In this document: positions 26,866 to 50,200 of the stretch, piece after piece
Numbering within the stretch: the stretch's first letter is position 1
Layout: every line of letters starts with the position of its first letter
Source: Candidatus Dojkabacteria bacterium
Lineage (GTDB): Bacteria > Patescibacteriota > Dojkabacteria > B142 > OLB20
Direction of reading: 5' to 3'
NCBI GenBank assembly: GCA_030583785.1
Contig: CP129475.1
Coordinates: 287,559-351,558 of the forward strand
Length of the DNA: 64,000 nucleotides
The notes under the pieces: model-generated
What the model was told of the DNA's origin: nothing
What the model saw: the letters and a program-made list of their open reading frames with translations, nothing else
The model's database searches: none
Made by a program: the position numbers and the translations under genes

Positions 26866-28062
26866 TCAAAAGGGGAGGCTTCCTCCGGAGGCAAGTAAAA
26901 CACCTGCCAGAAAGAGAATTATACCAACAACAAGCACCAATCCAATAATTAGTACCAGATTTTTATTACCTGAAGGTGTTGGTACTGGAGCTGGATCAGG
27001 AATTGGGGGCAAACTATCTACAATATTTAAGTTTTTATTTTCAACAGGTGAAGCCATTTCTTGAACCATTTGTGGTGCTTCTGGCATATTACCCATAGGA
27101 GATTCGACTTGTGGAAGGCCCTCTCTGGCAAGCAACGCTTCTGATCCCAGTGTCGGAGCTTCAAATGTCGTCACAGGCTGTTCCATTGCTGGTGGTTGTT
27201 GCATTTCTTGCTCCTGTTGCATTACAGATGCTTGTGGCATTTCTGTAGTTGGTACAACTGGAGAAACTGCTGGAGTCTCTTGGGTTAAGAAATCGAAATC
27301 TTGGCTTAAAATTGGTGAATCAGGTTGAGAGCTGGTATCAGAAACAGCCGGTGTTGCTGGTGGAGTCTGAATTGGATCGACAGGAGTTGTAGCCGTTGTA
27401 AACACACTTGCTGACTGGACTGATTCAGTTGGCATACTAGATTCCGCGGTCATTACAGTATTTGTCGGCATAGCAGTATCCATAGGCATAGCAGCAGTAT
27501 CTGCAGACATAGCTGGTTCAATGGGCAAAACTGGTTCAATTTTTGTTTCGACTGGCATTGCAGTAGAAGTATCTGCAGGTATAGCTGGTTCAACAGATAA
27601 AGCCAATTCTTCTACGGACGAACCCGTAAGAGAGGATGGCATCTGCATATCATTTGTTGGAAGTTCATTAACAACAGGTTCAGGTGTTACCGGAACCGCG
27701 GCAGAAACATCTACTGGTAAAGATACAGCAGGTGTATTAACACCAGCCTGCATAGGCTGATCAAAATCTGGTCCAGGTGTCTCAATCACTCCTGAACTTA
27801 CAGGCGCTACCGGTTCATCTTCTATTACAGCTTTTACAGGAGTATCAGTTATTAATGGCGGATTACTATTTGGCATACTTTGATCTACAGGTGATTGTGC
27901 TGGAGCTGGAGTAGTTGGAACAACAGTATTACTAGGTTGACCTGTTAATGGTGTCGCTGGGTTTTGTGGTGACATTGGATTAAATTGATTATCATTTGTT
28001 GTTGCCATAGCTCTTTGATTACAAATATTAATTTCAGTTTTGCACAGCACAAAAAAAAACAC
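26866..28062 (-). CDS. Pro/Thr/Ser-rich low-complexity protein with a single C-terminal TM (tail-anchored), hypothetical
   Basis: No N-terminal signal peptide. Long P/T/M-rich repetitive region. C-terminal LVLIIGLVLVVGIILFLAGVLLASG helix. The true start may be the internal MATTNDNQ. Confidence 0.5.
   Translation of the reverse strand: MFFFVLCKTEINICNQRAMATTNDNQFNPMSPQNPATPLTGQPSNTVVPTTPAPAQSPVDQSMPNSNPPLITDTPVKAVIEDEPVAPVSSGVIETPGPDFDQPMQAGVNTPAVSLPVDVSAAVPVTPEPVVNELPTNDMQMPSSLTGSSVEELALSVEPAIPADTSTAMPVETKIEPVLPIEPAMSADTAAMPMDTAMPTNTVMTAESSMPTESVQSASVFTTATTPVDPIQTPPATPAVSDTSSQPDSPILSQDFDFLTQETPAVSPVVPTTEMPQASVMQQEQEMQQPPAMEQPVTTFEAPTLGSEALLAREGLPQVESPMGNMPEAPQMVQEMASPVENKNLNIVDSLPPIPDPAPVPTPSGNKNLVLIIGLVLVVGIILFLAGVLLASGGSLPF
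27490..27620. repeat. Imperfect tandem duplication of about 61 nt inside the Pro/Thr-rich gene
   Basis: gcagtatctgcagacatagctggttcaa (27514-27541) recurs as gaagtatctgcaggtatagctggttcaa (27575-27602). It encodes repeated MPxDTA-like peptide units. Confidence 0.4.
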
Positions 28063-28104
28063 AAATAATCAAGCTTTGTCTTTCATTCCAATCAAGACAA
28101 TAAA

Positions 28105-28113
28105 TGTTATAAT
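28105..28113 (+). promoter_or_regulatory. Candidate extended -10 promoter (TGtTATAAT) for the giant-protein operon
   Basis: Perfect TATAAT at 28108-28113 preceded by TGn, 21 nt upstream of the ATG at 28135. Sits in a 72-nt divergent intergenic region. Confidence 0.35.
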
Positions 28114-28134
28114 CTACAAAGATTTGCACAATCA

Positions 28135-31100
28135 ATGACTGCACCAAAAAATCCGGAAACACCAAAGCCAGAAAGCATAGTGATCGCTCCTGACTTTGCA
28201 AAGCCAGAAGAAAAAAGAGATGAACCTCTTCCGGCAAGTGTTGCAGCAGACGACGAACAAACAAATCGAGAGAGAGCTTTAGCTGAAGCACAAAAGAAGA
28301 AGCTCGAACAACTTATTGCCGAAACAAGAAAGCCTAAACCAAATCTCAAACCTACCAAAGACACATCTGCAACTACTCAAGAATTACAAAGATATGCCGA
28401 CAGCGAAATACAAAAAGCTAAGTTAGAGAGTGATGCCGTTTTGAAGGCTATACAGGCAGAAGAAGAAATTGTAGCCAACGCACTAGAAAACATTATTGAC
28501 TTCCCTGGTTCAGGAACTGAAGTCGATCCAGCTGATTATCAAAGGCAAATTGATGAGCTTGGTTTTCAAGAAGCCGAACTTACAAAAAATCAAAAAATAA
28601 AAGTTAATGGGGCCCTTGCTAAAGCATCTGGTATAGAAGCTGAACTTATAAAGGCACATGGCAAAAGCACTGACCCAGGACTTATTGCAATCTTACTACA
28701 CCCAATCAAGAAAAGACTTGTAGCCCTAGCCATCTTTTTTGCAGGCAAAAATCTTAGTCGCGAAAGAAAGATAAGATTATTAAAAAGTGCGGGCTTTTCT
28801 AAAGAAGAGATAATCGCAAAGGTTGGCGACTTTGCAGAAGCGGATACAGAAGAACAGATAGATCAACCAGATTCTGAATTAGTTGAGCAAATTGAAGACA
28901 ATGGTCAAACTCCAGAAGATACTCCTAATACTCAGTCTCCAAGCGAGATTGTATCTTCTCTAAAAAAAAGACGAGAGCAGATACGAGAACAAGTCAGAAG
29001 TAGAAAACCCGAGCCGTTTAGTCCCCAAGAAGGTAATATTACAAAACAAGCAATTAGTTCTGCAGAAGCATATCTAGGTGAATACCCTGAACTGCACGAA
29101 GGATTTAAGTCATGGAAAGCAAAAATCGAAGAAGCAAACGAACAAATATTTGATCACCTTGCCCTAGCAGGGTCTTATGACCCAGCAAGTTTTGTTGAGA
29201 TCGGTGGAGGCTTCATTCCCGGACAGGATCCGGAGCAGACCGAACAAATGTCAAGCGAACAGGCAATTAAAACAAAAATTGCAGAAACATATAAACAATT
29301 CTTTCCAAACGACGAAATCGACACAATTGTTGATACCTATTTAAATGAAGTATCCAGTGCAGAAGACACAGCTAATGAGAGTCCTGTTTACAGACGCATC
29401 GGCTTTGAAATGAGAGCCATGGCCGAACTGCTTATTGCCAAAGATCGAAAGAACAAAGAATACGCAAGAATCTACTATGCTGCCGCTATGCAGGCTATGA
29501 ATTCAGAAGATACTGCAACCAGACTCTTACAAAAAAACGACGAAGGAATTTACGAAAACGATCTATTTGCAGTGCTCGGGCAAGAACCAGTCCTTTCTGA
29601 TGAAGCACAAGAATTTGCAGATCAAAGACTCAAAGATTTTATTCTTGCTGATCTAATTACAGATAATCAGGCTTTGGCAGAAGCAAGTAGACTCTTCGGT
29701 GCCAACTTTGAGCTTCATATAGGCGGAAGCGGTCCAATTATTATCACCGACCAAGAGACAATCCAACGGCTGGCTTCTCTTACTTCTTCGGGACAAATAG
29801 ATGAAGCTAGAGCAGCAGAGCTTGGAATTGACGGATTGACAATTAAAGGAACGGTGATTGCTACCAGAGACACATTGCCTCACGAAATGCTGCATCTCGA
29901 AAATGCCGCAATCAGATACCAAGAGAAACAGGCAAAACAGCTTCGAATACAAACGATCATCTCAAAAGAATTAGACAAGTTAGATGTTTCAATCAACAAC
30001 AGATCGCAAGCGATACAATTAATCACAGAATCGTATTTTGAATCTGGACTGGATGCCGAATCAATAAACGCCAAACTTAGCGAAGAGGGATTTCAAGACG
30101 AGCAGCTTGCAAATTATGTTAAATCACTTGTAGCTAAAGAAACCAGGGCAGGAAAGCTACTGAATTACTATAAAGAAATATCTAGGCCGCCTTTGTCCGA
30201 AGAGCTTGCAGCAACGATGCTATCTTCTGCATCAGGAGTTGAAATAAAACCGATCAATGCTGCCCAAATTGGAATTAATCCAGAAAAGATAGGTCAAGAG
30301 GGGATTAGTGAACAAGAGATGGTTATTATTACACTTATTAATGCTTACAACGAAGCTGCCGCAAAAGCACTAAATGACGACAAATTCAGAACTGAAGTAT
30401 TTAAGCCGAACCTTGAGATCTTTACATATCTGCTTTCACGAAAAAAAGATATGACTTTTGTGCAGTTGCGAAGATTCTTAGGTGAAGGTCCTTTAGCATC
30501 ACTTACTGCAGAATTATTTCCTAATCTATTCGCACAAGAACAAACCAAACAAGAAAATGGCAAATACTCTACAGCTAACATTCAGGCAATTATTCTTAAC
30601 AGGCTAACAAGTATTCCCAACTTTGCATCACTTACAGAAGAACAAAAACAAGAGTTGATTGCTATTGAAACAGAGCTTCTAATTGGCGATCAGTCTAATT
30701 ATCTTGATATCAATGGCATATCCTTCAATAAAGGTAGTATGTACTCTGGACTTCAGAAGAAGTTTATGACTAATCGAAAATATAACCCGGCCGCGGTGAA
30801 AGGGAGCAGAGGTGAGGTTGGTTTATGGTACTCGTTTTTTGGCAACCGAGCAACAATAGCAGAAGACACCAGACCTTTTGGATACTTCACTCCATTTGCC
30901 AGTTCTATGAAAATGAATGAAGCCTTTGGGGCATATGTTGTGCGAGGATTTCAAAAGGTAGCTGGCAAAAAATGGGGATCAAGAATTGCAGGAACCTTCG
31001 GTTTCCACGACGCCTTCGGGGCCGATCCAATAGGCAAAGGACTAGGTGGGCAGCTGTCTACGCTATGGCCATTTAGTGTAATCAGAGAGAAATATATTAA

Positions 31101-32991
31101 AAAAATCGACGCAGTCGATAAAACTTACATGGAAAGACTTACCTCTGCCAGAATAGCTGATACAGTTGCACAACATTCGGCATCAATTATTGGAGAACTA
31201 GGAAAAGAATCAAGTCAGGTAGTATTAATACTCGAATCAATAGGAGGTTTTAAGCAAGAAGCTCAAGGCTACGAGAATTCATTACGAGACTTCAGAGAAC
31301 CAGATGAACATAGATTTAATCGGGTCTTTTCAAAGTCCATGAATCTCCCGCCAAGTGATTTAAGAGAAAATTGGCTTGCTAATGACTCCATAATGGGCAG
31401 AGATATGGACGACCTTATTACTGAAGGTCACGAACTTTTTCTGCGCAAGGGGCAAATGTCAGATAACCTTAAAGAACTTATCGTTGCTCTTGTTCCAAAG
31501 GTAGAGAAGGATAACCCGAAAAGAAATGAGCGAATGAAGAAAAAAATTTATGGAATAGAATATGACTTAAAAGAACAATTTGAAAAGATTGCTAATGCAA
31601 TGATGACGGCCGATTTAGCTGAATTCAACAAAGCAAAAGTTGGAACAGCAGTTCCACTAGGCACAGTAATAAGGCATTACACGATCGAGGATCTAATCAA
31701 CGCTGTAGATCAAGCCGAAGCCGATCTTGATGATCCAGACAAATTAACAGACTGGCCACATGTGCGTGTGAAGATAGGAGAATCTACCGAATTATACGAA
31801 ATCGACCTTATAAAAGAATTCGTCAAGTACTTTTACAGTGCCAAGGCAGCAAAAGTAATCGAATTTGGCGTATACGGACAAAAAGCAGTAAAAGCAGAGA
31901 AGGCTCTAGCTACGAGTGTATTTACTGTTCCACTTGGCTTTAAAGACAACTCGTCGACAAACAACCAAGAAACAAAATCAATAGCCGGAATGTATCCAGA
32001 ATCATTCAGTCTGATGGAGACGCAAGAATATGACTATAGCAAAACACCTCCGACAACAATAGGGACTCCTATTGACAACAAGGCCGCACTAAAAATGACA
32101 GACCAAGATATCGAAAGTCTTCAGGCAAGAGGATATGTACTAATTAAACATCCTGATGACCCTACTAGAATCCTTCGCATTGAATTTTCTGATAAACAGA
32201 GAAGACACTTAAGTATGGTGAATTTTGTTGAGTATGACCAAGATGTAAAAATCATGAAGCAGACTCCTCAAGGGTTTATTACTCCACTCGCACCTGTAGA
32301 TGCTGCCACTGAAGATAGAAACAATTTTCTGTTTGGTCATATGGAATATGATACCGCTACTGGCAAACCATTAACTACATTTACCACCGAAAGAACAGAG
32401 AAATTAGTCGGGAAAGTCCCGATTGCAATAAGGGACGATATAGATAATAAAAATAGAGGATTAGGAATTTATTTCGAATATCTTCAAAAGCTGATGCAGA
32501 CAACAGAACTTGCAGAAGTCACTAGAAAGAGGGCGAAATTCTGGGCATTTATTACAAAAGTAAACAAGGTTATACGCTGGGGTGTTTATAGCGGTGTTGC
32601 TTTAGGACTAACAGTTTATCCGCCTTTATTGTCACTATCTCTACTTAGTCCAAATGTGTTCATCTCTGTAGTACTTTGGGATTGGTTTATGTCAAAATAT
32701 CTTGATCGCTCCCGAGACGGTTGGAAAGGTCGAAACGGAATTGCAGAAGAAACAGCTCAAAAACTCGAAGGGATGCGTAATACTTTTGAGCAATGCAGAA
32801 ATGGTCAAACTTTACCAACTGATACTCTCAACATGTTAGCTGCTTATACAAAAAACATCGAGAAAATGTGGGAAGATGTTATGGAGAAGTTCGAAAAGCT
32901 ATACAAATATAAACCTAACATGACACAAGAAGTCAGTTCGGCCGTTTTTGATTATTCTAGAGCTTTTATGAAAATGAATACTGATATGTAA
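28135..32991 (+). CDS. Giant protein (1618 aa), hypothetical; no signal peptide, one hydrophobic segment near the C-terminus
   Basis: Uninterrupted 4.86-kb ORF with ordinary codon composition. Acidic coiled-coil-rich N-terminus. HEMLH (HExxH) at 29881-29895. Predicted TM at about 32570-32690. First gene of a translationally coupled six-gene cluster. Confidence 0.6.
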   Translation: MTAPKNPETPKPESIVIAPDFAKPEEKRDEPLPASVAADDEQTNRERALAEAQKKKLEQLIAETRKPKPNLKPTKDTSATTQELQRYADSEIQKAKLESDAVLKAIQAEEEIVANALENIIDFPGSGTEVDPADYQRQIDELGFQEAELTKNQKIKVNGALAKASGIEAELIKAHGKSTDPGLIAILLHPIKKRLVALAIFFAGKNLSRERKIRLLKSAGFSKEEIIAKVGDFAEADTEEQIDQPDSELVEQIEDNGQTPEDTPNTQSPSEIVSSLKKRREQIREQVRSRKPEPFSPQEGNITKQAISSAEAYLGEYPELHEGFKSWKAKIEEANEQIFDHLALAGSYDPASFVEIGGGFIPGQDPEQTEQMSSEQAIKTKIAETYKQFFPNDEIDTIVDTYLNEVSSAEDTANESPVYRRIGFEMRAMAELLIAKDRKNKEYARIYYAAAMQAMNSEDTATRLLQKNDEGIYENDLFAVLGQEPVLSDEAQEFADQRLKDFILADLITDNQALAEASRLFGANFELHIGGSGPIIITDQETIQRLASLTSSGQIDEARAAELGIDGLTIKGTVIATRDTLPHEMLHLENAAIRYQEKQAKQLRIQTIISKELDKLDVSINNRSQAIQLITESYFESGLDAESINAKLSEEGFQDEQLANYVKSLVAKETRAGKLLNYYKEISRPPLSEELAATMLSSASGVEIKPINAAQIGINPEKIGQEGISEQEMVIITLINAYNEAAAKALNDDKFRTEVFKPNLEIFTYLLSRKKDMTFVQLRRFLGEGPLASLTAELFPNLFAQEQTKQENGKYSTANIQAIILNRLTSIPNFASLTEEQKQELIAIETELLIGDQSNYLDINGISFNKGSMYSGLQKKFMTNRKYNPAAVKGSRGEVGLWYSFFGNRATIAEDTRPFGYFTPFASSMKMNEAFGAYVVRGFQKVAGKKWGSRIAGTFGFHDAFGADPIGKGLGGQLSTLWPFSVIREKYIKKIDAVDKTYMERLTSARIADTVAQHSASIIGELGKESSQVVLILESIGGFKQEAQGYENSLRDFREPDEHRFNRVFSKSMNLPPSDLRENWLANDSIMGRDMDDLITEGHELFLRKGQMSDNLKELIVALVPKVEKDNPKRNERMKKKIYGIEYDLKEQFEKIANAMMTADLAEFNKAKVGTAVPLGTVIRHYTIEDLINAVDQAEADLDDPDKLTDWPHVRVKIGESTELYEIDLIKEFVKYFYSAKAAKVIEFGVYGQKAVKAEKALATSVFTVPLGFKDNSSTNNQETKSIAGMYPESFSLMETQEYDYSKTPPTTIGTPIDNKAALKMTDQDIESLQARGYVLIKHPDDPTRILRIEFSDKQRRHLSMVNFVEYDQDVKIMKQTPQGFITPLAPVDAATEDRNNFLFGHMEYDTATGKPLTTFTTERTEKLVGKVPIAIRDDIDNKNRGLGIYFEYLQKLMQTTELAEVTRKRAKFWAFITKVNKVIRWGVYSGVALGLTVYPPLLSLSLLSPNVFISVVLWDWFMSKYLDRSRDGWKGRNGIAEETAQKLEGMRNTFEQCRNGQTLPTDTLNMLAAYTKNIEKMWEDVMEKFEKLYKYKPNMTQEVSSAVFDYSRAFMKMNTDM

Positions 32992-32993
32992 TT

Positions 32994-33470
32994 ATGTTAC
33001 TAATATTCGATCCTAGAATAGAAGAATTAATGATTAAACACTTGGGTTTCAACGAACTCAGGCTTGTTGATATGAAACGAACTTATCGTGAAGCCTTAGA
33101 AAAGATTCAAGTTGACGAACTTTTTCAATATATTGAAGAAAATAACCTAGAAGAAGAATCTCAATTTATTGATAGTTTGTGTGAAGATACAGATGACAGA
33201 AGCAAACAGGTAGAAAATCTTGAAAGGCTCTATACCTATATTTTCGAATGTAACATTAAGCATCCACAGTATCGTGATCGAGTAGAGCAAAAAATTAGAA
33301 AAATTAACCAAGATTTAATCGATACTCTGTTCGACAATCTGCCAGCAGAAGCTATGGCAGAGATAGCGGCTATGTTTGTTGATGACATTAACATTATGCT
33401 GACAATAAAAAAAGCTAATCCAAGTTTCGAATTACCAGACAGATTAAACCAATTCGTCGACTCCAAATAG
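32994..33470 (+). CDS. Small acidic cytoplasmic protein, hypothetical
   Basis: ATG 3 nt after the giant ORF stop. 158 aa, strongly acidic, no TM. Confidence 0.45.
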   Translation: MLLIFDPRIEELMIKHLGFNELRLVDMKRTYREALEKIQVDELFQYIEENNLEEESQFIDSLCEDTDDRSKQVENLERLYTYIFECNIKHPQYRDRVEQKIRKINQDLIDTLFDNLPAEAMAEIAAMFVDDINIMLTIKKANPSFELPDRLNQFVDSK

Positions 33471-33501
33471 TTGCCATCGCTAATTATTCTTTCTATACTG
33501 A

Positions 33502-35004
33502 TTGTATTCAGATTTTATCTGCGTGCGTATGCATAAACTTGCTCATTCATTGCTTAAACCATTAAAAGGATTCAGAAAGGTTAATCCTGCATGGTTTCTA
33601 ATCTCTCTGTTAACTGTTGTCTTTCTTTTCACTAATGCATATAGAGTCGAGGCTGCGACTGCATACGATAACTGGGCCGGAGCAACTAGCCTTAGACCAA
33701 ATGCGCTCTATGGAACATTAACTGCTCTAAAAGTTCAGATCGATTGTACAGACGCAGATGGCAACTTTATCTGTCAAAACGAAGGAGCAACAGCATCGGC
33801 AATGGGTAATGTCACCGGAATCATCGCTTCAATGTATGAAAGTAGACCTTCAAGTGCAATCATCTGGGCACAAGATCAAGTCAACATGATTGCCGGCTAT
33901 GATTCAATTCTTGTTCAAGCCCAAGATACAACCTATTCACCTGGTATTGGATTCGAACTCATGCGACCTATCCTTGGTTTCTGGACCTGGGCCAGAAATA
34001 TTGCTTATTCATTCTTCATAATAATTCTAATTATTGTTGCTTTCCTAATCCTGTTTAGACAGCAACTAGGTGGACAGACTATGGTTACAATTGCAAACTC
34101 TCTACCATCAATATTAGTTTCTTTAGCTTTAGTAACCTTTAGTTATCCACTGTCTGCAATTTTCATAGATATTATTACGGTGGGGACCAATTTTACTTTT
34201 AGTGTAATGGTAGGTGCCGAAGGTTCACCTGGTTTTGAGTATTTTGACCAAAACCAGAAAAGTGAATTACAGCCAGACGACCCCAAAACCAGTATCTGGG
34301 GTGTGTGGGAAGCGACACAATGGAATACATGCGTTGGTAGTAATGCCGACAGTTGTGGTGTTAATAGACTTATTCCAGACTTGCCAGAAACAAATATGTC
34401 ATGGATAGCTGAAAGCATTCGACTTCTCGTTCCAGCAGGTGGAGAAGGTAACCCTACAAATATTCTTGTGAGTCTTTTAATCGCAATAACAGCCCTTGGA
34501 GCAGCGTTTAAACTAATGCTTGCCCTGCTAAACAACTATATAATTCTCACCACATTTCCGATATTTTCTCCGTTTGTTTTCTTAACAGCCGCAATACCTA
34601 GTGGTGGCGGGCCAATAAGTCCTGTAATCTCAAATTATTTCAAAATGCTTCTTGCATCAGCGCTAGTTTTTATTGCCATTTATGCAATTTTGCTATTCTT
34701 AATCGTTCTATCAGTATCCTTCGACCAAGAATTTAGCGGTGCCGGAAACGCAGTCTGGCAGCCACCACTTCTTGGCTATTCTGATGCAGCGGTTGGTGGA
34801 GGATTATTCAAAACAATTACTGTATTCGGAATATTTCTGTACTTGCCTTCAATTCCAGATTTAATTAAAGATAATCTAGGTGTAGCCAAAGGTAATGTAT
34901 TCTTCGAAACTATGTTTAGAAGAACCAATGAGTCAGCAAAATTCACTGCCGGTGCTGTAACCGGACTCGGAAGAAAGCTGAATGTCTTTGGTAATCCTGG
35001 CTAA
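33502..35004 (+). CDS. Polytopic membrane protein with signal peptide, Cys-containing extracytoplasmic N-domain and 6 TMs (VirB6/TrbL-like topology)
   Basis: Signal peptide ending ...AYRVEA|ATA. About 130-aa mature N-domain with two Cys pairs. Hydrophobic helices at about aa 160-185, 200-228, 305-330, 340-360, 375-400 and 425-445. A second Cys-containing loop (WNTCVGSNADSCGV). Confidence 0.5.
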   Translation: MYSDFICVRMHKLAHSLLKPLKGFRKVNPAWFLISLLTVVFLFTNAYRVEAATAYDNWAGATSLRPNALYGTLTALKVQIDCTDADGNFICQNEGATASAMGNVTGIIASMYESRPSSAIIWAQDQVNMIAGYDSILVQAQDTTYSPGIGFELMRPILGFWTWARNIAYSFFIIILIIVAFLILFRQQLGGQTMVTIANSLPSILVSLALVTFSYPLSAIFIDIITVGTNFTFSVMVGAEGSPGFEYFDQNQKSELQPDDPKTSIWGVWEATQWNTCVGSNADSCGVNRLIPDLPETNMSWIAESIRLLVPAGGEGNPTNILVSLLIAITALGAAFKLMLALLNNYIILTTFPIFSPFVFLTAAIPSGGGPISPVISNYFKMLLASALVFIAIYAILLFLIVLSVSFDQEFSGAGNAVWQPPLLGYSDAAVGGGLFKTITVFGIFLYLPSIPDLIKDNLGVAKGNVFFETMFRRTNESAKFTAGAVTGLGRKLNVFGNPG

Positions 35005-35010
35005 TAACCA

Positions 35011-36198
35011 ATGACATCTACAATTAATAACTCAGAAGAAATACTTAAGATTAATAAATCCATTTTTGAATTGGAGAATTTTTTCGTTGCAAATCTTGGA
35101 CCGCAGATACTTGATTACATATTTCTTTTTAGTAAAGAAGAAAGTCAAACCATCAAATTTGAACAAGTAACTGAAGAAGTATCCAAGGCAATGACTAGAT
35201 TCGTTGAACTTGTTAAACAATTGATGAACCTGCTCGAAGTTGAAGATGCAACCCCAACAGATGGAGGACTTAGCGAGAAATTTATTGACAGTATGCACGA
35301 CCTCTATCTACTTCGTTTTATCGAAGCAAAGAAGCAGTATGCAGACTACCAACTGGTAAGAGTCCCTACAAATACGGAACTAAGAATTCTTGATTTAATT
35401 CCTACAAAAGATGAAGATCTCAAGATTCTTCCCACTGCCATAAATATACAGCTCCCAGATATTTTTATCGTCGATGAAATGGGCAACTTAGATGTTGCCG
35501 CATCAATCCAACTAGAGGATTCTTATCATAAAATCGCCAGCTACTTAAGTACCATTGCCGAGATACCTAACCTGAAAGAACAAATGATTCAAGACTTAGC
35601 AGATATTACAATCTTCGAAAATGCTCCCAGTCTGCTTAGAAACGAACTACTTGATATTAGTGAAATGTTACTCACTTTAACTGTTAACTACTTCGCTGCC
35701 AGGGTGTATGGATATCTTTCCAGAGGGCAGTCTGTAAAAGAGGCAAAAACAAATGTACTTGCGTATTATAAAATGAACAGTATTGGGGCAGGCTCTGAGT
35801 TCCCTGAAAGCTTAAAGGATTTAGAAGAATCGATTGACGAGATATTAGACGAAGAACTTGAATCAATCACTGCACTTTATCCCGAAACAAGAGTCGCCTT
35901 AAAAGAAGATTATAAAGAACTATTATTATTCTATATTCATGATGCACTAATCATTCCCGAGAACTTTTATAAGATTGTCTACCGAGACTTAAAGGATTAT
36001 CAGGAAAATGATGAAAAATACAACATTCTTATTGACCTTTACCTGTTGCTTGAAGAAGGGCAAATGATTCCATTGCCTTCAGAGACATATAATATTGACT
36101 TAACCCAAGAAGCAAGAACTCTAATATTCAATGCTGTAACTGGTGGCCTTGAGAACCCAAACTTTACATTAATTGACTATTTGTCAGAAGTATCTTAA
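35011..36198 (+). CDS. Acidic cytoplasmic protein, hypothetical
   Basis: 395 aa, Glu/Asp/Leu-rich, no TM. Start 7 nt after the upstream stop. Confidence 0.45.
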   Translation: MTSTINNSEEILKINKSIFELENFFVANLGPQILDYIFLFSKEESQTIKFEQVTEEVSKAMTRFVELVKQLMNLLEVEDATPTDGGLSEKFIDSMHDLYLLRFIEAKKQYADYQLVRVPTNTELRILDLIPTKDEDLKILPTAINIQLPDIFIVDEMGNLDVAASIQLEDSYHKIASYLSTIAEIPNLKEQMIQDLADITIFENAPSLLRNELLDISEMLLTLTVNYFAARVYGYLSRGQSVKEAKTNVLAYYKMNSIGAGSEFPESLKDLEESIDEILDEELESITALYPETRVALKEDYKELLLFYIHDALIIPENFYKIVYRDLKDYQENDEKYNILIDLYLLLEEGQMIPLPSETYNIDLTQEARTLIFNAVTGGLENPNFTLIDYLSEVS

Positions 36199-37160
36199 TG
36201 CAAAAGGACGAAAGATTTGGCATAGTAGCCTTAACAACAACTGAACTTTCAGATCTGATTTCGAGCTGGAAATCTGTTAAGGATAAAAAGCCTATGGCTC
36301 CGGGTGATGCAGATAAATTGGTCGAAATATTAGAAAAGATCAGTAGTGAATTCGATAGTAAAAAAATTCCAGAGAAGACTGAAGTCCCACTCGCTCTAAT
36401 GGCACAAATGATTAGCGAAGATCCTAAACTTGTTCTATCGGCAATTAATCGCATTAACAGTTACATCTATTTACCCGAATCAAATAATGCAGTTGATCTA
36501 CAGGTTATAGAAAAGATTTATGCAACCTGGCAACAAAGAAAGGCTCAATTAGAAATGAAGGGTATTCTTCGTGTAACAGGAGCCCAAGATGAAATTCAAA
36601 TCACAGAATGGGAGAACACACTAATCTCAATGATTAACAAGGGAAGACAGAATAAATCAGTCTCTGGTGGTCAGAGTTCATATATTATTCCAACAAGCAT
36701 AGAAAACAGAGCTCTGAACATCATAAACTCTGTTAACAATGTTAACCTTAACGAGATTCGCACACCTATCAACTACGCAATGCTTGGACAAATTTTCAGT
36801 CGCAGAGATGCACTAACAAGTGAACTTAGAATACAGAACGCCAGGCTTGAAAGAAATTTTAAAAAGATTCGAATGAATGTATCGATGCATAGTGATCTGA
36901 AGAATATAATCATGGGTTCATCTATTAGGATTGAACAGATTCAAGGCAAAATGGAAGAGATGAAAAAACTTGATCCACAAGCTTTTGTAAACAATCCTGC
37001 ATTCTTACAGTTAAGGCAAGAGTTGCTTGGTCTTGAAAAGGACTTGAATGAGAGCAAACAACCACAACTTGAGGCTTTAATCAAAGAAGCAGAAGATCTT
37101 GAAAAAGAGAGAAAGTTAATATCAGATAAAATAATAGAAATTCAAAAGAAACTTCGCTAA
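36198..37160 (+). CDS. Coiled-coil protein, hypothetical
   Basis: Start overlaps the upstream stop (TAATG). C-terminal half has heptad-like K/E/L-rich coiled coil. Confidence 0.45.
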   Translation: MQKDERFGIVALTTTELSDLISSWKSVKDKKPMAPGDADKLVEILEKISSEFDSKKIPEKTEVPLALMAQMISEDPKLVLSAINRINSYIYLPESNNAVDLQVIEKIYATWQQRKAQLEMKGILRVTGAQDEIQITEWENTLISMINKGRQNKSVSGGQSSYIIPTSIENRALNIINSVNNVNLNEIRTPINYAMLGQIFSRRDALTSELRIQNARLERNFKKIRMNVSMHSDLKNIIMGSSIRIEQIQGKMEEMKKLDPQAFVNNPAFLQLRQELLGLEKDLNESKQPQLEALIKEAEDLEKERKLISDKIIEIQKKLR

Positions 37161-40081
37161 TGGCAACAGCAGGAAACAACGAAAATATTAATGTATACAA
37201 GTACTTCTTTGACCTTGAGCCAGAGATCCGTGAGATCGAATCTCAACTTAGGGTCATGGAAAATGACATCAAAGGATATAAAAATGATTGTCGAAACACA
37301 TTAAAACTAGTTCTTAGCACTTTAAGAAAAGCAAACTCTGTAACAAGGAACGATTCCTTCACTGCCGACGACGAAAGGATTGAAGCAGAGCTTAACGAAG
37401 AGTCAGAAGATCAGCAAAATCAAAGTCAGCAACAGACACCTACAAGCCAACAACCTCAACCTGAGCCCCAACCTGAACGACCTACGAGTTTCAAGGAAAG
37501 ATTTCGTGCCGAACTTAGAGGAGGAAAAGTCAATCCATTCATTAAAGCCGAGTACGATAATAAGGTTGTCAGAATGCAAAGAGCTCTTCGTAAAGGAGAC
37601 TATCTTGGACTACTGCTTGACCCAGATGTGCTTCCATGGACTCCACAAAGAAGGGCTAACAAAAAAATAATGGATGAATCGTGGCGTGTAGTTCGACAAA
37701 TTCCAAAAGAAGCAGCTAAGAGTGCGGGCGCCTTTGTATTAAAAGCCGCAATATCCGGAGGAAGCTATATTGGTGGCAAAGGCAAATCCGGAGTTCAAAG
37801 GGCAGCAGGGTTTGTATACAGGAATAGTAGTTTTGTACAGGAAAAAACCGAGTGGCTAAAGAAGCAATCAAAAAGTGTAAAAAGAACTCTTCGAAAGAAC
37901 ACAAAGGTTAGACTTGCTGCAACCAGAAGGGCTGCAGAAAGAAAACGCAAGAAAGATAAGCATGCTCTGCAAAAATTCCTGCTTGAAGGAACTCTTAGGT
38001 TCGCAAAAGATTTTGTCTTAGACAAAATCAACCAGTTAAGCGAGGCTGGCCAAAAACTCTATCGCGGAGTGAGGCAGGTTACTCACAATCGCTTCGTAAA
38101 TTCTCAGGTTGGAAAGAGTATAATCAACTCAAATACTGCCAAAAATATAAAAGTTGGATTAGAAACTTTTAAGAATACAGACACATATCGCAGTATAGCT
38201 TCCAGAACAAGCGCGGTAATCAATAACACCCCAGAAGCATTAAGAGCTACAGGCAGAAACATTGTTAGGGTAGGTGATTCAGTTAGAAACTCAAGAGCAG
38301 TTCGTTGGTCACAAGCTGGTATTTCAACTGGCGCAAAAGCGGTTGTCAAACCAGTCGAACTAGTTATTAAAAATAGATCAGCAATCTGGAACGGAGCTCG
38401 GGCCACAGCCAGAGGTGTCGTATCAGTAGGTAAAGCTGCTCCAAGAGGAGCAATGTCAGGTCTAGCCATGAGCCTCGTTACTCAAAATATTGCAGCTGGA
38501 GTGGCTTTCGGTCTAGCAGCAACTGCCGTGGGAAGTGTAGCAGCTTATAGCACCTCTAACGCAACCAGAGGACTTAAGAATGCAATGGGCGATTGGGATA
38601 ATTCCGCATTTGGAAAGAATCGGATATCTCCAGAAGCACAACAAAGAATTATCAATCGCGGAAATGTATATTCTAATGCCACCAGAGCTTTCCGAGCCTT
38701 AGATGCGGGAACGACTGTTGCTTCACTTGGAGCAATAGCTGCAACCGTTCTTGGAGGCAACCCCTTACTTGCAGCAGGATTTGGTTTTGCTGCCGGTGCA
38801 GGTGGCAGATTCCTTATTGATCGCTTTGTTGGGAACAGAGTAGCTCAGTATATGCAGGGTAATACAAGCGGTCTTCTGAACAAGATTGCTCACTTACCAA
38901 GTGGAGCTCTTCTAAATCAAGCAGTAAGTAGTCAATGGCTCGGGGAACAAATTCGCCTGTTAAGATCGGATTACGATAACGACCTAGGTAGATACCTTCA
39001 GGACAACTTTACCTTGACCGGAGGCGGTGGCATGCAAACTTTCACAGTCATTACAAATTATATCGGAGCAGCCAGCTACATTTCTGGGATTCACGCCGGA
39101 ACCAACGCACTTCTTTCAAGATATGGCAGCAGCGTTGCAATGGAATTCGCAAATAGGGGAATCGAAGGTAGTTTAGAACGAATCGGCTTAGGATTATCCA
39201 AGGGAGTTTCAAGTACTGGCTTTACCTGGAGGGGAGCACTTGGTTCTGTCGCCAATATCATCAAACAGCCATTTAGATTTATTGCCAGTGGGCCGTTATC
39301 GTTAACGAATCCAATAACGCTAGGAGCAACAGTTGGAGGGGTAGTAGGGACAGTTCTTGCAACTGCACTTGGCTTTGGTGGTCCGGCAGCACTTGCAGCA
39401 GGCGGTATCGGTGGGATAGCCGGTGCTGTCGCAGGAGCCTCTGCAGCCGGTGCACTTATTGGAGCTGCAACTTTAGGAACTGTCACTGCAGGAATAGGTA
39501 TAGGTATAGGTGCTGCCGTTGGAAGCTTCATCGGAACATTGTTTGGCTCGTATATTGGCAGCCTAGCTGATCGAACAGTAAATAGTGTCCTTGAAGGTTT
39601 TACAAATAGGGTGATAGGGCTATTCAACGGAGTAATGGCACTATTCAACTTAATGAAGATGCTTAGAAACGGGATTAATCCAGAAGATGCTCTCGGATTT
39701 CTTATGGCTTTCGGTATGTTGTTCACAATTATCTCCAGAAACTGGGAGCAGGGTGGAGAAGCGGTCTTTATTGAACAAGAGAATATTAAACAAGGCTACG
39801 AATCGATCGAGGAACCAAGGCAAGCTTACAAACTCGATCATTACAATATCAGTCTGATCAATACTAACGAACAATGGACTCCAGAAAGAATCCGTATCTT
39901 AATGGATTCACTTGCACAAACACAATCTGATGATTTTGAGAATGGAGATAGAAACATCCTCCTAGCAATTGGCCGAGAAGAATCTGTTGAAGTCGACGGT
40001 AATCTATTAATCTATATAGATCCAAACACATTTACCGGTAATTACAGAAACGAACCGATTCTCAGCTTTAACAATCTGTAA
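37160..40081 (+). CDS. Large basic protein (973 aa) with N-terminal coiled coil, Lys/Arg-rich region and Gly/Ala-zipper multi-TM block (tape-measure-like architecture)
   Basis: TAATG start/stop overlap with the coiled-coil gene. QQPQPEPQPE low-complexity linker. Poly-basic stretch (RKNTKVRLAATRRAAERKRKKDKH). Small-residue-rich middle. Hydrophobic GxxxG/AxxxA-rich block (about 39290-39600; ...GGIGGIAGAVAGASAAGALIGAATLGTVTAGIGIGIGAAVGSFIGTLFG...) plus two more helices. Confidence 0.55.
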   Translation: MATAGNNENINVYKYFFDLEPEIREIESQLRVMENDIKGYKNDCRNTLKLVLSTLRKANSVTRNDSFTADDERIEAELNEESEDQQNQSQQQTPTSQQPQPEPQPERPTSFKERFRAELRGGKVNPFIKAEYDNKVVRMQRALRKGDYLGLLLDPDVLPWTPQRRANKKIMDESWRVVRQIPKEAAKSAGAFVLKAAISGGSYIGGKGKSGVQRAAGFVYRNSSFVQEKTEWLKKQSKSVKRTLRKNTKVRLAATRRAAERKRKKDKHALQKFLLEGTLRFAKDFVLDKINQLSEAGQKLYRGVRQVTHNRFVNSQVGKSIINSNTAKNIKVGLETFKNTDTYRSIASRTSAVINNTPEALRATGRNIVRVGDSVRNSRAVRWSQAGISTGAKAVVKPVELVIKNRSAIWNGARATARGVVSVGKAAPRGAMSGLAMSLVTQNIAAGVAFGLAATAVGSVAAYSTSNATRGLKNAMGDWDNSAFGKNRISPEAQQRIINRGNVYSNATRAFRALDAGTTVASLGAIAATVLGGNPLLAAGFGFAAGAGGRFLIDRFVGNRVAQYMQGNTSGLLNKIAHLPSGALLNQAVSSQWLGEQIRLLRSDYDNDLGRYLQDNFTLTGGGGMQTFTVITNYIGAASYISGIHAGTNALLSRYGSSVAMEFANRGIEGSLERIGLGLSKGVSSTGFTWRGALGSVANIIKQPFRFIASGPLSLTNPITLGATVGGVVGTVLATALGFGGPAALAAGGIGGIAGAVAGASAAGALIGAATLGTVTAGIGIGIGAAVGSFIGTLFGSYIGSLADRTVNSVLEGFTNRVIGLFNGVMALFNLMKMLRNGINPEDALGFLMAFGMLFTIISRNWEQGGEAVFIEQENIKQGYESIEEPRQAYKLDHYNISLINTNEQWTPERIRILMDSLAQTQSDDFENGDRNILLAIGREESVEVDGNLLIYIDPNTFTGNYRNEPILSFNNL

Positions 40082-40092
40082 GATAAGAGGAT

Positions 40093-42018
40093 TTATTCTT
40101 GATTCTCGTTTTGACTTGCTATTCCATAACTTCCGTATGGATTGGCACTTTCAGCAGTTTTATTATCATAATCCAAAGATGAACCCTGTGGCACCACAGG
40201 CTTACTATCGCTAGCACTATCTGTGTTTTTTAGCCAGTCGGGGATTTCGTCATCGTTATAGATTGCTGGGGCAGCAACCTTCATCTCTTGAACGGGTTCC
40301 TGTTTACTAATAAAAGGGTCTTCGTACTCACCTATAGTCTGTGTTCCGATACTTGGCTCATACACTTCTGGTGTTGCATAAGTTGTTGTCTGGTCTGGCA
40401 TAACAATGGTTGTCTCTGAATATGGAATATCGGGATTAGGTACCAATGGCTGTGAATTATCTGTGTAAGTTACTGATCCATAGTCTGTAGCAATATCTGA
40501 AGAGCTTCTTCTGTTGCGAATTAGAAGTATATATAACATCCAAGGTACAACGATTAATAATAAGCCACAACAAAGGATTAACAATATAACTTGCGTCAAT
40601 TCAGCGCCCAGAAAAGAGAAAATATTTGCAGGATAAGAATCTGGATTACTATCTGGCATACTGTCTGGGAAAGAATCTGGTTCTGACTCGCCTGTATAAA
40701 AGAACCATTCTCTAACAGAGAACTTTCCGGCAGAATCAGTTACTCGAATTTGTATCTTGTGTCTTCCGTCGGCCAGATCTTCCGCAGGTTGACATTCTAG
40801 CTTTTCATCGGCAAAATCACATACTGTAAGTTTTTCTTCGTCAAGGAGAACTTCTATGCCTTCTTGCAACAATTCAGCATTTGTGGATGGTTTGATCGTA
40901 ACTGTGATTATTGGTTTTTTAAGAAGTGTCCTTTCTTCTTCTTGAGGAGATATTATTGTGATTAGTGGCGCTTCTTCTCCTGTATCTGAAGTAGAAATTG
41001 TTACATCAAACAGTTCGCTGATCTTTTCAATAGTTTTTCCCTCATTATTTGTCGCGATTATCCTTAATAAATACTTACCAGTCTCTACACCTTGCAGATT
41101 CCAGTCATAACTTGTTGTGCTACCGTTAAGATTAGCGATTTGAACCCAATTTTTACCTTCGTCCTTTGAATACGATAACAAAATGGAAGTCGGATTAAAC
41201 CTTTCAATATTCCAAGATAACTTATTGTTGTTTTTAGTAATAACGGTATCTTTTCCGGGAACAACAAAATTAATTGCTGCAGGCGGTAGATCGGGTTCGG
41301 TAACATTAAGAGTAAAAAACTGTTTGACTACACCTCCAAAACCATCGGATACAGTTATTGTAATTGGATAGGAACCAGCCGTAGTAATAGTTTTTTCTGT
41401 ATATATTAGTCCTGTATCTCTATTCATGTACAAGAAGAAATCTCCACCTTTATCTATTACATATGTGAGTTTATGGCCATCAGGATCTGTTGCCTGAACT
41501 TGATATGTAAAGTCTTCACCGACTTTAATTGATGAATTCGGAGGTTGAGAATTAATAACAGGAGGCCTATTGGTATTTCCAACGGCTACAGTATGTTTAT
41601 CGCAAAGTGAATAAAAATTATTGGGAAGTTCACGAAAAGTTGCACATATCCTTACACAGTAGAAACCATCTGGAATTGAACTTCTATTTTGTATGGGACC
41701 ATCAGTATCCCAGAGGTCTGTAAAGTAAGCTCCGTTTGCGCTGGCAGTTTTTGAACCCGATGCTATTGTCCCAAAATATGGACCATTAACTGAACAAGCA
41801 GAACTGAAAAGATCGATCTGGTAGGGTATGTCTGCTTTATCGACCTCTTTAAGAAAATATCGAACCTGTGAAATACCAGTGACAACAGCGTTATTTATAG
41901 GTGATGCAATATAAACTTCATCGTTGCCCTTTGTTACTGCGTACACCGGTGAACCCGAAACAAGCATAAAAAATGCGACAAGAGTCAGACCGATAATTTT
42001 TTTATATTGATTATTCAT
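40093..42018 (-). CDS. Type-I membrane surface protein with Ig/cadherin-like (dystroglycan-type) domain(s)
   Basis: N-terminal signal peptide. PPVINSQPPNSSIKVGEDFTYQVQATDPDGHKLTYVI...ITITVSDGFGG is a putative-Ig/cadherin-like repeat. More beta-rich domains follow. TM (ILLILCCGLLLIVVPWMLYILLI) and an about 110-aa cytoplasmic tail. Confidence 0.6.
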   Translation of the reverse strand: MNNQYKKIIGLTLVAFFMLVSGSPVYAVTKGNDEVYIASPINNAVVTGISQVRYFLKEVDKADIPYQIDLFSSACSVNGPYFGTIASGSKTASANGAYFTDLWDTDGPIQNRSSIPDGFYCVRICATFRELPNNFYSLCDKHTVAVGNTNRPPVINSQPPNSSIKVGEDFTYQVQATDPDGHKLTYVIDKGGDFFLYMNRDTGLIYTEKTITTAGSYPITITVSDGFGGVVKQFFTLNVTEPDLPPAAINFVVPGKDTVITKNNNKLSWNIERFNPTSILLSYSKDEGKNWVQIANLNGSTTSYDWNLQGVETGKYLLRIIATNNEGKTIEKISELFDVTISTSDTGEEAPLITIISPQEEERTLLKKPIITVTIKPSTNAELLQEGIEVLLDEEKLTVCDFADEKLECQPAEDLADGRHKIQIRVTDSAGKFSVREWFFYTGESEPDSFPDSMPDSNPDSYPANIFSFLGAELTQVILLILCCGLLLIVVPWMLYILLIRNRRSSSDIATDYGSVTYTDNSQPLVPNPDIPYSETTIVMPDQTTTYATPEVYEPSIGTQTIGEYEDPFISKQEPVQEMKVAAPAIYNDDEIPDWLKNTDSASDSKPVVPQGSSLDYDNKTAESANPYGSYGIASQNENQE

Positions 42019-48319: not shown

Positions 48320-50200
48320 ATGGCAAAAATTAAGAGTCAATCAAATAATCGGGTCAACTATTTTGCACTTGCTGTTCTCTTATTCCTTACATTTTCAATT
48401 CCATTAACACTTGTAGCAATTAATCTTGGCTTTAACCCATTTACAAGAGCGAACCAAACACTTCCTCCTAAAGAAGTTGTTGTAGCAAACATCACAGATT
48501 CTGGAGCAACGATAGCATTCATTACAGATGAACCAGTTTCTGCAATAATTAATTACGGGGTAGTCGAGAACCAGTTGAATAAAGTCGTTTCTGACAAACG
48601 AGACCTTTCAAGTGGGCTAACGGGTGATTATAGGACTCACTATTTTGAGCTTGCTGGATTAACACCAAATACAGTTTATTATTTTACTCCTGTTATTGTT
48701 GACACGGCTTATAAGAACGGAGCAGTACCCTTTACCTTTAAAACCCTTTCTGCAACGGAGGATCCGACCATACCTTTACCAAAATACGGCAGTGTTAATC
48801 CCCCGACAGCCGGCGCATTAGTTTACGCACATATCATATCTAAACAAGGATCAAATTCATCAACTGCTTCAGCTATAACAGCAGACAATGGTACTTATAC
48901 TTTCGATGTGGGGGTAATGCGCGACTCTGCTGGTAAACCTCTAGACCCAGCAGGACTAGAACTACTTATTGTAGCTGTTGACAACGAACTAGGTAGAGGA
49001 GGAAAAACATTTCCCTCAGAACAACAACCCGGCAGCATCGCAGTTGCAAAAGGCAACCAGATAATCTATGCAAACGAACTGAAAGAGATTTCCCAAGCTA
49101 CAACAACAACACCGACTCAAACTGCAGTTCCAACAGGAACTAATCAGCCAACTACTACTCCAACAACAGCTCCAAATCCAACACTAGATCAAAGATCAAG
49201 ACAGATACTGACATCACCAGACAGGGCGGAATCTACGGATCTTGCAGAACCAACTTCTCCTGCAAATATCTTTGTTAGCAATATTGATCAAAGTGGCTTC
49301 AATGTCAACTGGACAACCTCTTCAAAAACTACGGGGACCATTTATCTTCAAGAAAGCAATACGGTTTATAAAGACATTCGTGATATAAACGAAAGCCAGA
49401 CTCGCTATACCCATTCAGTTAGAGTAATCACGAGTAACTTTCAGGCAGGTGAAATAATAAATTTCACTATTGAAGTTAACGGCCAAAGGGTAGAAAGCTC
49501 CAGTTATCAATATCTTATCCCTTCGATTCCCTCTACATCAGCGCCAACCTTGACAATAAACGGAACAAGGACCAATACACATACAGAAACTGACACATCT
49601 GATTACATAGTCGCCAGTAAGTTAAGGTCAACCGATAGCGAGTCAACATTCAAGACCACGGTAGCAAATGCAAACTGGTCAATAGAAGCAGGGGATAGCT
49701 TACTGATTACTGATCAATCGTCTGTCGACTTCTTTCCTGCCGATTCTTCTACTAATACGACTATAACGGCATACGGGGAGTTCAATTCCAGAGATGGAAA
49801 GAATTCGTCAGCCTTAGAGCAGGTTCAGGTTCTTATGCAACCCAAATTAGCAATTACTAATCCAGCTCCAAATCAGAGCTATAATAACCTTTCAGAGATT
49901 TCAGGTATTGCCAGACCGAGTTCTGGGATAAAAATTAATCTAAACGGAAGAGAATATACTACTGCCTCAGATACAAAAGGTAATTGGGTAGTTCGCAACA
50001 TCGGTTTAATCGCTGGCACAAACACTTTGACTGCCACAGACGGAGAATCTCAACTGACTTTTCGATTTAACTTCACACTAAACCAACTACCAGATACTAG
50101 CCTTGAAAACTGGCAACCAGTATTATTTGGCGTAATACTTATTGTTTCTGGTATATTGCTTCGCAGATATAGAAATATTAATTATCGCTCAACCCAATAA
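48320..50200 (+). CDS. Surface protein with FN3-like domains, Thr/Pro-rich linker and C-terminal TM anchor
   Basis: N-terminal TM or signal. Two fibronectin-III/purple-acid-phosphatase-N-like beta domains (…ANITDSGATIAFITDEPV…YYFTPV; …NIDQSGFNVNWTT…). TTTTPTQTAVPTGTNQPTTTPTTAPNPT linker. C-terminal hydrophobic helix plus RRYRN. Confidence 0.5.
   Translation: MAKIKSQSNNRVNYFALAVLLFLTFSIPLTLVAINLGFNPFTRANQTLPPKEVVVANITDSGATIAFITDEPVSAIINYGVVENQLNKVVSDKRDLSSGLTGDYRTHYFELAGLTPNTVYYFTPVIVDTAYKNGAVPFTFKTLSATEDPTIPLPKYGSVNPPTAGALVYAHIISKQGSNSSTASAITADNGTYTFDVGVMRDSAGKPLDPAGLELLIVAVDNELGRGGKTFPSEQQPGSIAVAKGNQIIYANELKEISQATTTTPTQTAVPTGTNQPTTTPTTAPNPTLDQRSRQILTSPDRAESTDLAEPTSPANIFVSNIDQSGFNVNWTTSSKTTGTIYLQESNTVYKDIRDINESQTRYTHSVRVITSNFQAGEIINFTIEVNGQRVESSSYQYLIPSIPSTSAPTLTINGTRTNTHTETDTSDYIVASKLRSTDSESTFKTTVANANWSIEAGDSLLITDQSSVDFFPADSSTNTTITAYGEFNSRDGKNSSALEQVQVLMQPKLAITNPAPNQSYNNLSEISGIARPSSGIKINLNGREYTTASDTKGNWVVRNIGLIAGTNTLTATDGESQLTFRFNFTLNQLPDTSLENWQPVLFGVILIVSGILLRRYRNINYRSTQ

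Follow-up and report, generated by a model that had tools for sequence, protein, structure and literature searches.

What kind of system does a compact cluster of six envelope genes belong to when no ATPase gene lies in it or beside it? The question is raised by a 64,000-nt stretch of contig CP129475.1 (assembly GCA_030583785.1) from a Candidatus Dojkabacteria bacterium, hereafter the window; it is the 64 kb inspected of a 1.17-Mb genome, and positions are those of this whole stretch unless another locus is named. The original prediction, made from the letters of the window, had taken the six genes (here G1 to G6) for a translationally coupled operon encoding an envelope-associated rather than a metabolic machine in a bacterium from the candidate phyla radiation (CPR), and had recognised no characterised system of this composition. 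The CPR origin (Ca. Dojkabacteria) and the envelope-associated nature are both supported. The claim that no characterised system is involved does not hold, given that the anchor protein of the operon, G3, is very probably a VirB6-family member of the patescibacterial type IV secretion system (T4SS), which is derived from the mating-pair formation (MPF) type MPF-FATA and has been described (PMC12102498). Our best explanation, to which we give a probability of about 0.55, is that a chromosomal operon found only in Dojkabacteria combines a VirB6-type subunit with five lineage-specific partners and works with the T4SS of these bacteria. The six genes, each defined as an open reading frame (ORF), are:

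28135-32991, + strand: G1, the giant protein, 1618 amino acids (aa), isoelectric point (pI) 5.2
32994-33470, + strand: G2, small acidic soluble protein, 158 aa, pI 4.6
33502-35004, + strand: G3, polytopic membrane protein, very probably of the VirB6 type, anchor of the operon, 500 aa, pI 5.2, TTG start
35011-36198, + strand: G4, acidic soluble protein, 395 aa, pI 4.3
36198-37160, + strand: G5, coiled-coil-like protein, 320 aa, pI 8.5, its start overlapping the G4 stop (TAATG)
37160-40081, + strand: G6, basic polytopic protein, 973 aa, pI 9.9

From G1 to G6 the junctions measure +2, +31, +6, -1 and -1 nt, and two of them are TAATG overlaps; the six same-strand ORFs and their spacing are thus as first described. 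NCBI, where G3 is listed as QY330_01560 / WKZ28276.1, calls its start at ATG 33529 (491 aa), which is likely the true one. None of the six proteins contains a Walker A motif. No VirB4, VirD4, VirB3, pilin, capsid, portal, terminase, integrase or relaxase was found anywhere in the 64-kb window, nor was any DUF87, AAA_10 or TraG-type protein or pilin-like small ORF, so that the absence of ATPase, pilin and phage genes originally noted in and next to the cluster extends over 64 kb. Profile searches with the six proteins had been named as a check of the original prediction. These gave no significant match for G1-G6 among the Pfam, PHROG and NCBIfam profiles, and PDB sequence-profile searches with the G1, G2, G3, G4 and G6 families were also negative; G2 and G4 have no known homolog by either type of search. 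G3 alone could be placed, by other means, and its five partners matched nothing.

G3 and the VirB6 family

Because three independent lines converge, among them locus context, sequence and fold, we read G3 as a diverged VirB6, and we regard its identity as a VirB6-type subunit as very probable. Hydropathy analysis gives 6-8 hydrophobic segments, and the structural model, with long helices at residues 146-229 and 309-483, agrees with the presence of at least five hydrophobic helices. In fold, G3 is similar to experimentally solved VirB6-class subunits (VirB6/DotA-like fold). It shares a polytopic hydrophobic multi-helix organisation with TrwI of plasmid R388 (PDB 7o3v) and DotA of the Legionella Dot/Icm system (PDB 9ngy), but its sequence identity to both structures is 7-9%. 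Two further differences set it apart from the VirB6/TrbL family: it carries an N-terminal signal-anchor and a Cys-containing extracytoplasmic loop, and its gene in Dojkabacteria lies apart from those for VirB4, VirB3 and pilins, among the genes for five unrelated partners.

The apparent sequence link between G3 and TrbL is transitive and sub-threshold. The window G3 does not match Pfam TrbL (PF04610) at E<=1, and one of the 53 members of the G3 family (P0048) does so with an E of 2.9e-5 and 24.4 bits, below the 25.9-bit cut-off. G3 is connected to P0048 with an E of ~1e-14 and to the locus of P0048 (L005) with an E of ~6e-19 by BLAST. The UniRef name of the G3 orthologs of OLB20 and OLB21 is 'TrbL/VirB6'.

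Six independent, distant homologs of G3 from other CPR lineages lie in T4SS-type loci (L003, L005, L024, L025, L028 and L029). All but one follow arrays of 4-8 PF18895 VirB2-like pilin genes, the exception being L005 with a single pilin gene nearby. A large protein sits between the array and the G3 homolog in three of the five pilin-array loci, a large opposite-strand protein comes after the homolog in four of them, and in L003 and L028 genes for PrgI/VirB3, a TraC-like protein and VirB4 are found downstream. This layout agrees with the published description of the patescibacterial T4SS (PMC12102498), and the location of G3 homologs directly after VirB2-like pilin genes fits the role of pilin-recruiting platform that has been proposed for VirB6 (PMC12857230). 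A neighbourhood of T4SS genes was seen for these distant relatives and for a VirD4-adjacent variant described below, but not for the window or for the canonical six-gene loci within +/-10 kb. The VirB6/TrbL resemblance first noted for the 500-aa protein is in this way backed by fold and locus context; the VirB6-likeness also noted for the 973-aa G6 belongs to G3 instead. As a side observation, L024 (CAZFNL010000029.1) is labelled 'uncultured Gammaproteobacteria bacterium', yet its CPR-type pilin array and G3 homolog are nearly syntenic with the Patescibacteria contig L025, and it is probably mis-binned.

A reduced variant occupies the same chromosomal site in L004, L022, L023 and, partially, L021. 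It consists of a long G3 (~800 aa) and a small protein of ~190 aa with a single transmembrane (TM) helix. The long G3 joins a VirB6-like N-terminal half to a hydrophilic basic C-terminal extension of ~280 aa, in which no sequence similarity to G1, G2, G4, G5 or G6 was detected. Directly upstream of PduO and the long G3, L004 (6686-9205) and L023 (3230-6103) encode a TrwB/VirD4-like ATPase of 839-957 aa with DUF8128, DUF87 (weak) and TrwB_AAD_bind domains, like a type IV coupling protein (T4CP). No such gene lies within 10 kb of the canonical six-gene loci. The long G3 has the architecture of the extended VirB6 of monoderm MPF-FA systems (TcpH or ConG type, 700-900 aa; PMC12857230), whereas the window G3 is the short 500-aa form; by analogy, the extra functions of an extended VirB6 may be carried by separate genes in the window operon. 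The gene after the long G3 (L004 12389-12985; L022 9437-9910; L023 9176-9742) encodes 157-198 aa with an Arg/Gly/Ala/Ser-rich N-terminus, 1-2 TM helices and a short tail. Its composition recalls a miniature G6, and its matches to the G6 profile are insignificant.

The reduced variant bears on the missing ATPase, which had originally been held against a T4SS. Genomes of the GTDB class Dojkabacteria are reported to be VirB4-positive (Table S1 of PMC12102498, the preprint version of which names Dojkabacteria among the T4SS-bearing lineages), and in CPR bacteria the T4CP gene mostly lies far from virB4 (PMC12102498). Because of these two points, and because the sister variant adjoins a VirD4-like gene, the argument loses its force, and it is plausible, going by the literature on other Dojkabacteria, that VirB4 and VirD4 encoded elsewhere in the genome energise the operon in trans.

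Conservation of the operon and its five partners

Loci were collected by looking up exact proteins and by scanning the GTDB species representatives once, followed by local iterative hidden Markov model searches and gene maps; word-indexed homolog searches for G1 and G6 returned near-identical copies only, being swamped by low-complexity words or by protein length. At least 15 Dojkabacteria genomes from independent assemblies turned out to have this operon, all of them at one and the same site of the chromosome. Its surroundings are conserved in order: PduO/Obg, a variable minus-strand gene, G1-G6, then the genes for an Ig-like protein, a solute-binding protein (SBP) and a DUF3048 protein. Across the loci G1 has 1250-2300 aa, G2 ~140-160, G3 500-610, G4 ~375-430, G5 ~320-400 and G6 830-1290. 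Protein identity among operon-bearing genomes is 15-50% and the flanks are nevertheless identical, which indicates old vertical inheritance and not a recent insertion. The start-stop overlaps of G4/G5 and G5/G6 (-1 or overlapping) are conserved among relatives, where the G2-G3 gap is again the largest junction of the operon (31-101 nt); these gaps, with the conserved gene order, bear out the predicted operon structure and tight coupling. G1 is intact in many independent assemblies. It is naturally split in OLB20 (767 + 1025 aa, in two separate assemblies) and, at another point, in L002 (350 + 1476 aa). The giant ORF is no assembly artefact and the gene order is not due to chance, as the comparison of genomic context proposed at the outset now shows.

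The gene maps also reveal that G1, G2, G4, G5 and G6 come and go as a unit and that G3 persists without them. This all-or-none pattern indicates that the five partners form one functional module dependent on G3. The G2 family occurs in 15 loci, always between G1 and G3, the G4 family in 15 and the G6 family in at least 13, so that each of the three is represented in almost every canonical locus. The fastest-evolving member is G5, whose positional orthologs are not detectably homologous (hhalign P 0.25) and for which L002 and L018-L020 have no separate gene. In the deepest branches G1 and G5 both diverge beyond detection, with positional equivalents remaining. An exhaustive HMMER search of 1.84 billion representatives with G1 residues 420-1618 recovered only 15 proteins at E<=1e-3; the two most divergent of the G1 relatives that were looked up both lie within the same operon, and G1 is always its first gene. 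By these searches the five partners appear to be restricted to Dojkabacteria, with no detectable relatives elsewhere. Several of the Dojkabacteria-type loci bear the label 'uncultured Candidatus Saccharibacteria'.

The features that stand out within the two largest partners are:

29881-29895, + strand: HExxH motif of G1 (H583-E-M-L-H587), candidate zinc-binding or catalytic site
30202-30204, + strand: E690 of G1, nearly invariant, in a conserved 'EE[LFI]' helix, candidate third metal ligand
32581-32697, + strand: hydrophobic hairpin of G1, about residues 1483-1521, membrane anchor predicted by hydropathy
39314-39559, + strand: glycine-zipper TM block of G6, residues ~719-800, from hydropathy, invariant glycines and composition

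G1 is built of an acidic coiled N-terminal third, the segment with the HExxH motif, a conserved C-terminal half and the hairpin near the C-terminus. The conserved HExxH is a new finding that the original prediction had missed. E584 is invariant and H583 and H587 nearly so, which makes them the most conserved columns of the alignment of this 1618-aa protein ('LPHEMLHLE'), amid barely alignable sequence. Exactly one HExxH is present in 11 of the 12 full-length G1 representatives (the exception, P0077, is a doubtful multi-stretch match) and in each of three divergent positional giants (L002, L018 and L019), against 0.01-0.08 per protein expected from composition; G1 has 16 histidines in total. 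The hairpin region is the best-conserved region of G1, with P1496, P1506, W1530 and R1533 nearly invariant, and it aligns weakly but co-linearly with the divergent giants. The coding strand of G1 (window 28001-32000) shows an AT skew of +0.19 to +0.27, compared with ~0.05-0.15 elsewhere, owing to the Lys/Glu/Asn/Gln-rich composition of the protein.

An AlphaFold2 model of G1 residues 420-800 (predicted local distance difference test 76.6, predicted template modelling score 0.70) has a four-stranded sheet leading straight into a long helix that opens with HExxH, and places E690 on a later helix past a variable insert. In the numbering of the modelled segment, strands 107-118 and 148-157 precede the helix 162-196, which starts with HExxH, and E271 (= E690) lies in helix 268-281. 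The predicted layout over about residues 520-720, a HExxH helix after a sheet and a Glu downstream, is that of a zincin/gluzincin. The segment matched no known zincin family by sequence profile or by fold, and the peptidase fold is unconfirmed. We consider it possible, at somewhat less than even odds, that G1 is an active zincin or other zinc-dependent hydrolase. Zincin-like metallopeptidase (MPTase) domains are known from giant 'polyvalent proteins' delivered by conjugative T4SSs or phages (Iyer et al. 2017, PMC5512222). Like these, G1 is a very large protein with a single HExxH and a link to a T4SS, and its sheet, HExxH helix, variable insert and later helix with a conserved Glu parallel their MPTase domains. 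It differs from them in having no ArdC-N, SNF2, methylase or other polyvalent-protein domain, in being chromosomal and, by prediction, membrane-anchored, and in having no sequence or fold match to any zincin.

G6 comprises an N-terminal coiled-coil and Lys/Arg-rich region, the Gly/Ala-zipper membrane block and a small C-terminal domain. Its most conserved feature is an invariant GxxxGxxxG at G751, G755 and G759. The GC content of the operon equals the background of 0.38 except over the Gly/Ala-rich part of G6, where the glycine-zipper block raises it to 0.45. An antisense ORF inside G6 (39091-39726, - strand, 211 aa) has a Pro/Ala-rich translation that mirrors the GGN/GCN codons of this block; both the ORF and the local rise in GC to 0.45 are almost certainly compositional artefacts. 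A score of 9.4 bits between G4 and the TraC-like protein was dismissed.

Explanations for the operon

The explanation we favour, an operon that works with the Dojkabacteria T4SS, would run as follows. G3 would form a pentameric platform or protochannel in the cytoplasmic membrane, on or beside which the glycine-zipper protein G6 and the hairpin-anchored G1 would dock. The acidic G2 and G4 and the coiled-coil G5 would serve as cytoplasmic adaptors or chaperones, and VirB4 and/or VirD4 encoded elsewhere in the genome would supply energy in trans. The HExxH domain of G1 would be a zinc-dependent peptidase that processes G1 itself or a partner, or acts on the host, a role modelled on the metallopeptidase domains of the giant T4SS-delivered 'polyvalent' proteins. 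The whole assembly would serve host contact or exchange in an epibiotic lifestyle.

The closest described system is the patescibacterial T4SS (MPF-FATA-derived; Quinonero-Coronel et al. 2025, PMC12102498). The operon resembles it in being chromosomal, relaxase-free and from the same phylum; the T4CP of that system is typically remote from virB4, a role in the epibiotic lifestyle is presumed for it, and homologs of G3 hold the VirB6 position in its loci. The same study found VirB6 to be scarce or very diverged in some CPR classes, and it cites the T4SS as essential in Southlakia epibionticum. The patescibacterial loci are, however, defined around virB4 (VirB4, TrsD, PrgI, VirB6 and pilin arrays), and the operon shares with them only the VirB6-like gene. 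None of them contains the other five products of the operon: the HExxH giant, the pair of acidic proteins, the coiled-coil protein and the Gly-zipper protein.

Several observations weigh against a joint function with the T4SS. The genes expected around a T4SS (VirB4, VirD4, VirB3 and pilin) are missing from the 64-kb window, which therefore has no VirB4-defined T4SS locus, and a second VirB6 paralog beside virB4 in the operon-bearing genomes is possible. G1, G2, G4, G5 and G6 have no detectable relatives among the genes of canonical CPR T4SS loci, and comparison of the five partners with the neighbours of the T4SS-embedded G3 homologs gave no significant similarity. Right after virB4, L003 (18838-21516) and L028 (18174-20714) encode a protein of 846-892 aa that has no Pfam match. 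Like G6 it combines a charged N-terminal region with a Gly/Ala-zipper TM block, with five GxxxGxxxG motifs in L003. The profile-profile comparison of G6 with the L003 protein gave P 1.5e-4 versus P 2.6e-3 for the reversed-sequence control. This score is barely better than that of the control; the resemblance of G6 to the post-VirB4 protein may well be compositional and does not establish homology.

The detachment of the operon from all other T4SS genes, at a conserved housekeeping site, could also mean that it is an autonomous envelope machine built on a co-opted VirB6-like scaffold. Such a machine would have parted from VirB4 and VirD4 and would act by itself as a host-contact, adhesion or channel complex; it could use the proton-motive force or be a passive conduit made of the G3 platform and a G6 glycine-zipper pore. 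Five of its six proteins are indeed unrelated to the content of canonical CPR T4SS loci, the pilin array that precedes G3 in the other CPR loci examined is absent here, and secreted or surface proteins flank the operon. This is nonetheless rather unlikely, as G3 has stayed beside a VirD4-like ATPase in the variant found at this site, the G3 family is otherwise always embedded in a T4SS locus, and, as is established, no member of the VirB6 family is known to work independently of T4SS ATPases (reviewed in PMC12857230).

Alternatively, the operon may be an effector-delivery cassette in which G1, and possibly G6, are substrates of the T4SS and not structural parts of it. On this reading the giant G1 would be translocated as an effector, and its zincin domain would process G1 itself or target the host; G2 and G4 would be its acidic secretion chaperones or adaptors, G6 a glycine-zipper pore-former in the host membrane, and G3 the co-encoded channel subunit that they engage. 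Small, very acidic soluble proteins (pI 4.3-4.6) beside a giant one resemble chaperone-effector pairs, and the HExxH in the giant parallels T4SS-delivered polyvalent proteins. G1, G5 and G6 diverge fast, as expected of host-interaction proteins, and glycine zippers are typical of channel-forming proteins, which also speaks for such a cassette. We find it quite unlikely all the same: the membrane hairpin, as the best-conserved part of G1, suits a resident membrane protein better than a cargo, the zincin fold that an effector role would call on is itself unconfirmed, and a gene inherited vertically on the chromosome, in one copy, does not look like part of a polymorphic effector arsenal.

The idea that the operon is left over from a prophage tail module or a conjugative element, in which G6 was the tape-measure protein and G1 a tail fibre or polyvalent protein, is effectively refuted: the Gly-rich TM helices and the length of G6 recall tape-measure proteins, an impression voiced in the original prediction, and VirB6 is ancestrally a conjugation gene, but none of the six proteins has a PHROG match, G3 relatives are absent from the 50,697 phage records, 72,556 plasmids and IMG/VR contigs searched, the window holds no integrase, relaxase, capsid, portal or terminase, the GC content equals the background outside the Gly-rich stretch, and the PduO, Obg, Ig-like, SBP and DUF3048 flanks, identical across genomes with 15-50% identity, speak for vertical inheritance. 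Membership of G6 and of the cluster in a tail module was accordingly rejected, there being neither a family match (PHROG, Pfam or PDB) nor phage genes nearby, and the chromosomal position being fixed.

The window around the operon and the significance of the finding

The flanks of the operon are made up of housekeeping genes and of the genes for the two surface proteins originally described. On the left lie those for an ADP-forming acetyl-CoA synthetase, a PduO-type adenosyltransferase, Obg and a Pro/Thr-rich tail-anchored protein (26866-28062, - strand); on the right those for an Ig-like protein with a signal peptide (40093-42018, - strand; He_PIG and Big_13 domains), a solute-binding protein, a DUF3048 protein and CTP synthase. 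Within the operon, one promoter-like site is a lead:

33471-33499, + strand: TTGCCA-17-TATACT, 10/12 matches to the consensus, filling the gap between G2 and G3

This site is the tied-best consensus match in 27500-40600 and could be an internal promoter, in a scan that overall was not enriched versus shuffles. An Rfam scan of the window found a single tRNA, far from the operon.

Elsewhere in the window, a P-type cation ATPase is spread over two overlapping ORFs on the + strand (15013-15858 and 15788-17470). The first, of 281 aa, has Cation_ATPase_N and E1-E2_ATPase domains and the second, of 560 aa, Hydrolase and Cation_ATPase_C domains; the split could reflect a frameshift, a pseudogene, a programmed shift or a sequencing error. 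Two small overlapping ORFs at 56251-56803 (+ strand) look like a type II toxin-antitoxin pair, with a 98-aa product resembling a ribbon-helix-helix NikA-like family (E 3e-4, weak) and an 87-aa product resembling the ParE toxin (E 3e-3, weak), both below the Pfam cut-offs. A 266-aa protein of the DDAH/arginine-deiminase superfamily (11554-12354, + strand) may be tied to the use of arginine for making ATP that has been discussed in other CPR bacteria (PMC11665869). Two further proteins are probably surface-exposed or secreted: one of 456 aa (2263-3633, + strand), in which CAP (cysteine-rich secretory) and glucodextranase-B-like domains occur, and one of 626 aa (48320-50200, + strand), whose FN3 and purple-acid-phosphatase-N-like matches are weak and stay below the threshold.

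Apart from that of CPR bacteria, where it was shown in one Saccharibacterium, no T4SS has been reported as essential to the organism that bears it, and what the system does in CPR bacteria has been called entirely unknown (PMC11665869, PMC12857230). Descriptions of the patescibacterial T4SS and of its VirB6 exist already (PMC12102498, with the work on Southlakia epibionticum that it cites). In the literature searched we found no description of this detached Dojkabacteria operon, of its five partner families, of its conserved HExxH giant or of the reduced VirD4-adjacent form, and nothing on VirB6 in Dojkabacteria/WS6. The operon is of interest to CPR and T4SS specialists, and it is not the uncharacterised system originally proposed; if the five partners are mere lineage-specific accessories, the gain is one of incremental annotation.

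In the published CPR survey the detection of VirB6 was poor in several classes. Fold and context now place a diverged VirB6-like gene in Dojkabacteria, and five co-inherited proteins become candidate partners or substrates of the T4SS, one of them with a testable catalytic motif. A natural comparison with which to dissect VirB6 in monoderm episymbionts is offered by three forms: the full set of six genes, the reduced locus in which VirD4 neighbours a long VirB6 and a small TM protein, and the canonical arrangement of pilin array, VirB6 and VirB4. We think it unlikely that Dojkabacteria have gone so far as to rebuild the membrane core of the T4SS from a VirB6 platform, a glycine-zipper channel protein, a membrane-tethered giant zinc protease and two acidic adaptors. 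If they have, the rebuilt apparatus might do without a pilus of its own, or might draw on ATPases solely in trans, and it would be a CPR machine for host interaction or feeding that forms an architectural class by itself, with five extra parts that have no homologs elsewhere.

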